A stretch of 64,000 bases of DNA from Candidatus Makana argininalis. GTDB taxonomy: Bacteria > Pseudomonadota > Gammaproteobacteria > Enterobacterales > Enterobacteriaceae. The first letter of the stretch is position 1; every line of letters begins with the position of its first letter. The stretch lies in the NCBI GenBank assembly GCA_044442745.1, contig JBISJS010000001.1:82258-146257 (forward strand), written 5' to 3'. Position numbers and translations under genes: made by a program. A model generated the notes under the pieces. It was not told where the DNA came from. It saw only the letters and a program-made list of their open reading frames with translations, and ran no database searches. This document shows positions 62,281 to 62,827 of this stretch, piece by piece.

Positions 62281-62698
62281 ATAAATTTTTATTTAATGAT
62301 AATTTAATCCAATTTTCTAAAATTATAACAGCTGAAATGGAATTTACTTTTTTTAAAGATTTATAACCAAATCTATTAAATAATATTTCACGTGCTTCTA
62401 TGCTAGTCAGTCTTTCATCTTGCATTTTTATTTTATAACCAAATTTAATATTAATTTTATTAGCAAAATTACGTGCAAGTGTTGTTATAATTTGTTCACT
62501 ACCATCCATATTTAAAGGTAATCCTACTATTATTAAATATGGTTTCCATTCTTTTAAAATCTTACCTATATTTATCCATAAATTTTTATTTTTAATTTCC
62601 TTAAGAGGTCTTGCTTTGCAAGTTATAAATTGACCTATAGCTACGCCAATATTTTTAGTTCCAAAATCAAATGATATGATATTTTTTGATTTACAAAT
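62279..62698 (-). CDS. ruvX: Putative pre-16S rRNA nuclease / Holliday-junction-resolvase-like protein YqgF (RuvX), with no canonical start codon
   Basis: The track lists only 62279..62509 (MDGSEQ...). The same frame stays open upstream and encodes ..IISFDFGTKNIGVAIGQFITCKARPLKEIK....WKPYLIIVGLPLNMDGSEQ, collinear with E. coli YqgF LLAFDFGTKSIGVAVGQ...IIVGLPLNMDGTEQ. There is no in-frame ATG, GTG or TTG upstream of the essential FDFG motif. ATT at 62698-62696 lies 7 nt after AGGAG. Confidence 0.75.
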   Translation of the reverse strand: MCKSKNIISFDFGTKNIGVAIGQFITCKARPLKEIKNKNLWINIGKILKEWKPYLIIVGLPLNMDGSEQIITTLARNFANKINIKFGYKIKMQDERLTSIEAREILFNRFGYKSLKKVNSISAVIILENWIKLSLNKNL

Positions 62699-62827
62699 AA
62701 TTAATCTCCTTAATTGAAAATAAATATACTATAAAATTAAATAAGTGTAATATTTATTATATAATAAATATTACACTTATTTAATTTTATAGTATATTTA
62801 TTTTCAATTAAGGAGATTAATTATTTG
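62694..62827. repeat. 134-bp perfect, spacerless palindrome (67-nt arms) filling the ruvX-rpsF divergent spacer
   Basis: 62694-62760 is the exact reverse complement of 62761-62827 (all positions checked, p+q=125521). Each arm ends in AAGGAGATTAATTATTTG. The right-hand TTG is the rpsF start codon. Confidence 0.95.

Follow-up and report, generated by a model that had tools for sequence, protein, structure and literature searches.

The arms of inverted repeats can evolve in concert. In the palindromes of the human Y chromosome and in plastid inverted repeats, this takes place by arm-to-arm gene conversion. Long perfect palindromes are substrates of SbcCD in Escherichia coli, and spacerless arms of 67–76 nt belong to a size class that this bacterium tolerates poorly. 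Template switching also homogenizes the arms of inverted repeats, and it can both create and maintain hairpins (Lavi et al., 2018, PMC5941160; Monttinen & Loytynoja, 2022, PMC8794818). According to the same template-switch literature, every perfect inverted-repeat arm in the noncoding DNA of E. coli is shorter than 20 bp (PMC5941160, PMC8794818). Here, we describe a perfect palindrome of 134 bp between the divergent genes ruvX (yqgF) and rpsF in a 64-kb window, the whole stretch of DNA that was analyzed, from the psyllid symbiont 'Candidatus Makana argininalis'. The comparison with related strains indicated that this symmetry is neither new nor selected pair by pair, and that it is probably kept perfect by the copying of one arm onto the other.

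The closest described system is quasipalindrome correction by template switching (the Ripley model). Both there and in Makana, the arms are identical within a genome and drift in sequence between genomes, changes of several nucleotides as well as indels are found on both arms, and noncoding DNA is strongly enriched in perfect inverted repeats. In contrast to the arms below 20 bp in E. coli, the Makana arms measure 67–76 nt with no spacer, the palindrome carries functional signals of two genes, and the mechanism is read from sequence. The Y-chromosome and plastid repeats are likewise pairs of inverted copies whose concerted evolution has left them near-identical for millions of years, but they are kilobases to megabases long, contain spacers and depend on homologous recombination, whereas the Makana element is 134 bp long and spacerless. 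Its siblings with arms of 15–35 nt behave alike, and this favors a route through hairpins or template switching. That template switching makes the arms of inverted repeats evolve in concert was already known for short repeats, and the same process had been proposed for the origin and upkeep of perfect RNA hairpins. What is new is the extreme size (134–152 bp) of a spacerless, single-copy palindrome that contains functioning translation signals for two genes.

Geometry of the ruvX–rpsF palindrome

All coordinates are positions in the window, and the strain from which it derives is designated W. Positions 62694–62760 (the ruvX-proximal left arm, minus strand) are the exact reverse complement of positions 62761–62827 (the rpsF-proximal right arm, plus strand), the latter containing the Shine–Dalgarno (SD) sequence and start codon of rpsF and being the plausible ancestral copy. 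Each arm has 67 nt with 8 G/C positions, and there is neither a spacer nor a mismatch. This geometry, which had been described in a first-pass annotation of the window, was recovered both by a repeat search and by an independent script, and the script returned the element as the longest spacerless palindrome of the window. The coordinates also confirmed that it takes up the entire divergent spacer between ruvX and rpsF, with both ends entering the genes. Complementarity ends at 62694 and 62827, and the flanking genes differ (ruvX vs. rpsF). When the window was shuffled locally 20 times, the top palindrome score was 17, compared with 67 for the ruvX–rpsF element, and a chance origin is excluded.

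For the palindrome as a single strand, the predicted folding energy was −79.3 kcal/mol for RNA (z = −21) and −59.7 kcal/mol for DNA (z = −20.8). The element is thus similar to the palindromes attacked by SbcCD, being perfect, AT-rich at the center, longer than 100 bp and able, by this DNA fold, to extrude a hairpin or cruciform. Unlike them, the palindromes of Makana have lasted for millions of years, with only occasional deletions, as in one of the strains compared below. No second copy of the arm or of its core was found in the 64-kb window or in the approximately 130 kb of related Makana loci that were fetched. A terminator scan of positions 62600–62920 returned no terminator-like site, and no T run follows either arm. 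An intrinsic terminator, which requires a GC-rich stem and a U tract, was consequently rejected for these arms with their 8 G/C positions in 67 nt. A replication origin was not supported either, as there is no switch of GC skew at the palindrome, and one assembly was rotated to gidA, which lies around 27 kb away.

Mirrored divergence among related strains

In the genome report (PMC11425488), 'Ca. Makana argininalis', which has a genome of around 277 kb, is described as a Morganella-like co-symbiont of Hawaiian Pariaconus psyllids, the genomes having been assembled with MEGAHIT at approximately 1200x coverage into single circular contigs. The same report dates the radiation of the Pariaconus hosts to approximately 3–3.5 million years. 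The GC content of the window was 17–24%, and an rRNA operon was linked. Four further strains were used for comparison, designated as S1 (GCA_051307355; loci L001, L004, and L008), S2 (GCA_044442865; L002 and L012), S3 (GCA_044442725; L003, L005, and L009), and S4 (GCA_044442785; L010 and L011). The gene order around the ruvX–rpsF site was identical in W and S1–S4. Pairwise coding divergence was 8.5–10.8%, the quartet tree of W, S1, S2, and S3 was almost star-like, and ordinary spacers of the same region mostly differed by 17–40% among the strains.

A perfect spacerless palindrome was present at this site in W and in three of the four relatives. The arms were 67 + 67 nt in S1, 69 + 69 nt in S4, and 76 + 76 nt in S3 if the two contig ends abut, 65 + 65 nt of the latter lying wholly inside the contig start. 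The four palindromes, with lengths of 134, 134, 138, and 152 bp, had four different sequences, and their arms differed between strains by 6–19% plus two to four indel events. The alignment of the right arms of W, S1, S3, and S4 comprised 77 columns, with 50 invariant, 16 substituted, and 11 gapped. All 27 variable columns were mirrored on the opposite arm, and none of the approximately 280 pairs across the four genomes was broken, even though the palindromes had diverged by substitutions and indels over a host radiation of some 3–3.5 million years. Independent evolution of the arms since the strains split predicts about 11 arm-to-arm differences per genome, whereas the observed number was zero (Poisson P(0) = 1.2e−5 per genome and 2e−20 for the four). 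Since the arms have drifted between strains yet are perfect within each, the symmetry points to ongoing arm-to-arm homogenization. The first-pass annotation had read the absence of divergence as either a recent origin or homogenization, and had held that compensated differences in relatives would speak against a recent duplication. Such differences were found in the orthologous spacers, and the five-strain comparison clearly sided with homogenization and against a recent origin.

Three blocks were invariant in each arm, comprising the half-core ATAATAAATA at the dyad, TT.ATTAATT, and the outer block AAATTAAGGAGATTAA.TATTT. The indels were confined to the interval between the second invariant block and the SD block, with none between the first two blocks, and the variable part of the arms appears to evolve at roughly the spacer rate. 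The endpoint at the G of the TTG start codon, which had been singled out in the annotation, was found in W and S4, but the palindromes of S1 and S3 were one base shorter. Judged from these sequences, the endpoint is no conserved feature.

In strain S2, the spacer between ruvX and rpsF had only 17 bp, with no SD sequence on either side. The S2 rpsF gene begins at an ATG corresponding to codon 2 of the other strains, the S2 ruvX gene can start only at ATA, and both open reading frames are intact. Since the rpsF SD sequence, which is shared with E. coli, sits in the right arm, the most plausible reading of the S2 spacer is that the palindrome was deleted. Occasional excision is the expected fate of long palindromes.

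The favored explanation for the mirrored changes would be a DNA-level process in which one arm is copied onto the other again and again. As suggested by the pattern and the literature, the arms are most likely homogenized during replication, either by intramolecular template switching or by hairpin-templated correction (quasipalindrome correction); RecA-type conversion between the arms is a possible alternative. Whenever one arm acquired a mutation or an indel, this change would be either erased or transferred to the opposite arm, so that the palindrome would drift in sequence and length between strains and remain perfect within each genome. Each arm would contain two constrained blocks, the SD-proximal 22 nt and the 10-nt half-core at the dyad. 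By the same route, the translation-initiation region of rpsF (AAGGAG and its spacer) would have been imposed on ruvX, with its ATT start in the left arm, and other spacers, such as that between ssb and fieF, may be subject to the same process.

The W-specific substitutions were strongly GC-gaining, with pooled coding counts of 506 AT>GC and 141 GC>AT changes (positions 23600–44050 and 52800–64000 vs. the relatives), a spectrum that is unexpected for a genome with around 20% GC. An AT-to-GC bias special to the W arms was rejected, as the changes in the arms match this lineage-wide spectrum (p =.07, not significant).

Co-evolving palindromes elsewhere in the window

Ten palindromes with scores of at least 14 were found in the window, six of them perfect, compared with 0.7 ± 0.8 in local shuffles, representing a roughly 14-fold enrichment. 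Apart from the ruvX–rpsF element, most were located at gene 3′ ends. The second perfect spacerless palindrome (26 + 26 nt; 33500–33551) lies in the convergent spacer between fieF and ssb, where the arms also change in concert across the strains. While W has 26 + 26 perfect nucleotides at this site, S1 has 33 + 33, also perfect (L008, 2544–2609), S4 has 35 perfect pairs around a 4-nt loop (L010, 10523–10596), S3 has 23 pairs with two mismatches (L009, 10534–10584), and S2 has around 37 bp with a 1-nt bulge (L012, approximately 10520–10560). These palindromes are homologous among the strains but differ in sequence. The second co-evolving locus and the window-wide enrichment together suggest that the underlying DNA-level process is genome-wide.

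A near-perfect palindrome of 81 bp with 38 pairs and two mismatches (58301–58381) uses the 3′ coding end of hslU as its left arm. It was found only in W, with nothing comparable at this site in S1 and S4. In its right arm, all eight positions that differ between W and S1 agree in W with the reverse complement of the left arm, although the site was picked as palindromic in W and the changes were not polarized by an outgroup.

Translation signals of ruvX and rpsF

The locus has groES–groEL upstream, ruvX on the minus strand with its stop at 62279, and the genes rpsF–rpsR–rplI on the plus strand from position 62825. The rpsF gene (ribosomal protein S6; 62825–63169, plus strand) has a TTG start and encodes 114 aa with a 100% database protein match and the Pfam domain PF01250, its N-terminus MIHYEIV aligning to MRHYEIV of E. 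coli. Its SD sequence AAGGAG (62810–62815, plus strand) lies 9 nt ahead of the TTG within the outer block that is invariant in the four strains. The mirrored AAGGAG (CTCCTT on the plus strand; 62706–62711, minus strand) lies 7 nt upstream of the ATT start of ruvX. The ruvX/yqgF gene (62279–62698, minus strand; 139 aa, Pfam PF03652) thus begins inside the palindrome, at 62698–62696. This ATT-start model is identical to the NCBI 'Candidatus Makana argininalis' protein over 139 aa (100% identity), which is encoded on a contig of 277,300 bp, and no in-frame ATG, GTG, or TTG was present upstream of the FDFGTK motif of ruvX.

The mirrored TTG (62696–62694, minus strand; 62691–62696 together with the TAA that directly follows it) is out of frame with ruvX and unusable as its start in W, and the ATT lies two bases upstream of it. 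The arrangement with an ATT start 7 nt past the mirrored AAGGAG is common to W, S1, and S3, and the mirrored TTG is in the ruvX frame only in S4, where ruvX is frameshifted in a run of 15 A. The S4 gene is broken at this run (L011, approximately 9745–9765) and has no gene call. None of the five strains has a canonical ruvX start codon, and the annotated starts vary (ATT, ATA, ATA, and one truncated call).

These data sorted the earlier claims about the duplicated unit. The first-pass annotation had correctly noted that ruvX and rpsF share an identical upstream sequence of 67 nt including the AAGGAG. Its proposal that the rpsF start codon was duplicated onto ruvX failed, since the ATT serves as the ruvX start and the mirrored TTG, with TAA right behind it, lies outside the ruvX frame. 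The rpsF leader of E. coli ends in UAAGGAG-N7-AUG, and UAAGGAG followed by 7–9 nt and a start codon is also found in the right arm of Makana. Because of this shared layout, the rpsF-side arm is plausibly the source copy. Of the proposed inverted unit, the rpsF leader is consequently plausible as the source, and the transfer of its start codon is not supported.

A further proposal was that ruvX had come under rpsF-type control by S6:S18. The suggested comparison with the Rfam model and folding of the arms were carried out, and neither a model match nor a structure emerged. The RpsF_leader model (RF02893) had no match in 62550–62950 at E ≤ 10, nor in a whole-window scan at the gathering score of 37 bits, whereas the E. 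coli positive control scored 110.1 bits. The only Rfam matches at the palindrome were sub-threshold miRNA hairpin models responding to the palindrome itself. The two arms, each folded singly with its start region, were not more stable than shuffled sequences (z = −0.62 and −0.41). The Makana arm therefore resembles the RpsF leader in its position directly upstream of rpsF and in the same UAAGGAG at its end, but differs from it in having no covariance-model match at this threshold and no stable structure (z = −0.6). On these scans, the S6:S18 regulatory hairpin has evidently been lost in the reduced Makana genome. As the element is missing in S2 with both genes intact, any shared-leader regulation would be dispensable.

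The core at the dyad

The 20-bp core at the dyad (62751–62770), consisting of TATTTATTAT followed by ATAATAAATA, was invariant in the four palindrome-bearing strains and unique in the window. It contains TATAAT on the plus strand at 62760–62765 and on the minus strand at 62761–62756, with an overlap of 2 bp. Symmetric −10 elements give rise to bidirectional promoters (Warman et al., bioRxiv 10.1101/2020.01.31.928960; PMC12825309), and by analogy the core is possibly the symmetric −10 pair of a candidate bidirectional promoter. As in the described cases, the Makana core lies between divergent genes and has overlapping −10 elements on opposite strands, here TATAAT with an overlap of 2 bp, and the predicted separation of the transcription start sites of around 23 bp, assuming a 7-nt gap between the −10 element and the start, is one of the reported preferred spacings. 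The differences are that the known cases are pseudo-symmetric over around 20 bp, while the symmetry here is perfect over 134 bp, and that the −35 element here is weak (TTAAAT), with consensus sites not enriched over shuffles. If transcription started just outside the core, neither mRNA would hold both arms, and the 67-bp duplex would be absent from normal transcripts.

A promoter-like ATTACA-17-TATATT (62770–62798, plus strand; mirrored at 62751–62723, minus strand) was specific to W and occurred at shuffle-level frequency. A consensus promoter scan returned three sites compared with 3.9 ± 2.3 in shuffles, and was not used as evidence.

Alternative explanations

A variant of the copying explanation, which we regard as rather unlikely, would keep the arms identical by RecA-dependent gene conversion, without template switching at replication. 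Arms of 67–76 nt are above the minimal length for RecA-mediated exchange. The S4 locus L011 encodes recA, and both recBCD and mutS are reported as kept in Makana (PMC11425488). However, the same perfect co-evolving symmetry was found with arms of 15–35 nt, which are poor RecA substrates, and intramolecular synapsis is sterically awkward between arms that adjoin without a spacer. Because the co-evolving perfect arms are this short, a hairpin or template switch was favored over RecA.

Alternatively, selection could keep the pairing through compensatory substitutions for a function of the long duplex or cruciform, the candidates being read-through double-stranded RNA processed by RNase III, a transcriptional insulator, or a protein-bound cruciform. 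The position of the palindrome is kept in four of the five strains, each arm contains two invariant blocks, a transcript crossing the dyad would fold into a duplex of −79 kcal/mol, and the other palindromes of the window are mostly at gene 3′ ends, where hairpins could terminate transcription. This nevertheless seems improbable. Selection on pairing would tolerate G-U pairs and occasional mismatches, yet none of the approximately 280 pairs is broken, and indels of 1, 2, and 7 nt are not easily mirrored in that way. Moreover, there is no terminator-like U tract after either arm and none in the terminator scan, S2 lacks the element with both genes intact, and a transcript with both arms is not expected from an element at two 5′ ends.

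That short-read assembly or chimeric fold-back reads produced the palindrome is very unlikely. The genomes were all assembled from metagenomes by MEGAHIT-type pipelines, one contig ends within the palindrome, and fold-back artifacts do occur in public data. However, the perfect palindromes obtained at this site from four independent samples are all different, each bounded by different genes on its two sides, whereas in an artifact such as locus L022 the whole contig is self-complementary with mirrored reading frames. The coverage was around 1200x. The palindromes of 134 and 138 bp are shorter than the k of 141 indicated by the contig names (k141_), so that single k-mers cover the element and both flanks. 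Only the 152-bp case, which exceeds k, breaks the graph, as expected of a real palindrome longer than k. Accordingly, the circular S3 contig JBISJR010000001.1 (end in L003, start in L005) is linearized 11 nt inside this palindrome. The deposited S3 ruvX is annotated as a truncated protein of 96 aa.

Locus L022, the metagenome contig Ga0247584_1002618, is its own reverse complement over the entire 3.5 kb, with mirrored open reading frames and a 110-bp SD-to-SD palindrome, and was classified as a fold-back artifact or hairpin-ended element unrelated to Makana. Besides L022, a metagenome pattern scan for SD-to-SD palindromes returned 59 ordinary divergent gene pairs and no true analogue.

There is next to no chance that the element arose when the rpsF leader was recently duplicated once in inverted orientation, possibly with S6:S18 autoregulation of ruvX. 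The absence of arm divergence in W and the likeness of the SD sequence to that of E. coli rpsF would suit such an event, but the palindrome already existed when at least four strains, now around 10% apart in coding DNA, separated, and its divergence since then is mirrored. There was also no RpsF_leader match in a search whose control worked, no RNA structure in the arms, and no in-frame mirrored TTG.

A mobile or dispersed palindromic element (REP-, ERIC-, MITE-, or RPE-like) or a protelomerase telomere-resolution site is equally hard to credit. The sequence is palindromic, intergenic and AT-rich, as would suit such an element, but it is single-copy in the window and the related loci, has arms holding the SD sequence and start codon of a host gene, and is crossed by contigs into different genes, with the S3 contig start reading through the dyad and thus leaving no hairpin end. 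Membership in the REP/BIME, ERIC, RPE, or MITE families was rejected, as these have multiple copies per genome and no further copies occur within the fetched Makana loci. A hairpin telomere of a linear chromosome was likewise rejected because the contigs pass the dyad into different flanks.

Several points weigh against arm-to-arm copying by template switching and the regulatory role attached to it. The pattern would fit template switching, hairpin mismatch repair and RecA conversion alike. All five assemblies are apparently of the MEGAHIT type, although a shared systematic artifact is unlikely. Since S2 has intact genes without the element, whatever the palindrome does is dispensable. The template-switch signature at hslU is biased by the choice of the site and thus only suggestive. 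Finally, the promoter reading is weak, with a −35 element of only TTAAAT and a consensus scan not above shuffles, and a genuine rRNA promoter of the same genome keeps TTGACT-17-TATAAT.

Going beyond arm-to-arm copying at a single site, it is conceivable, if somewhat doubtful, that the symbiont runs active genome-wide hairpin-templated copying that makes and extends spacerless palindromes of 130–150 bp and holds them perfect over millions of years. The region upstream of ruvX would then have been overwritten by the inverted promoter-proximal and ribosome-binding region of rpsF, and one self-repairing, symmetric, bidirectional module would drive the two unrelated genes. If this were true, such "palindromization" would allow reduced genomes to replace and share their regulatory DNA, and Makana would offer a natural system for measuring template-switch rates. 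The locus suggests that regulatory regions of degenerate genomes may be copied onto their neighbors by a purely mutational mechanism. It also indicates that long perfect palindromes can be stable in a reduced genome, and it could be used to quantify conversion rates, deletion as in S2, and the birth of new palindromes. For annotation and assembly, it serves as a warning that contigs break where the palindrome is longer than k and that ruvX start calls vary by strain.

Other features of the window

Two further hairpins were found, one with 31 perfect pairs and a 2-nt loop (1084–1147), and a W-specific one with 22 pairs and one mismatch directly after tpiA (60073–60121). No palindrome was detected at the orthologous tpiA–groES position in the four other strains. 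In the lepA–rnc spacer, a perfect 36-nt inverted repeat with copies 56 nt apart (7129–7164 and 7221–7256) is nested in a larger palindrome of 154 bp with 83% complementarity.

The 16S rRNA leader contains conserved blocks at 38741–38765, 38834–38862, and 38889–38901. The second of these is the rRNA P2 promoter with TTGACT-17-TATAAT, in which the −10 element is TATTAT or TATATT in other strains, and the leader also has a second TTGACT block and the boxA-like TGTTCTTTTAAAA. The conservation of these blocks indicates that canonical sigma-70 promoters and antitermination signals persist in the 277-kb genome. Upstream of groES, the block CCCCATTGAAG...CCATATAT (60123–60156) hardly varies among the five strains although the spacer around it evolves fast, and by its sequence it looks like a sigma-32 heat-shock promoter. 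Between the convergent ends of groEL and ruvX, an imperfect hairpin with a CCAAACC...GGTTTGG core (62224–62294) may act as a bidirectional terminator that limits groEL read-through into the palindrome.

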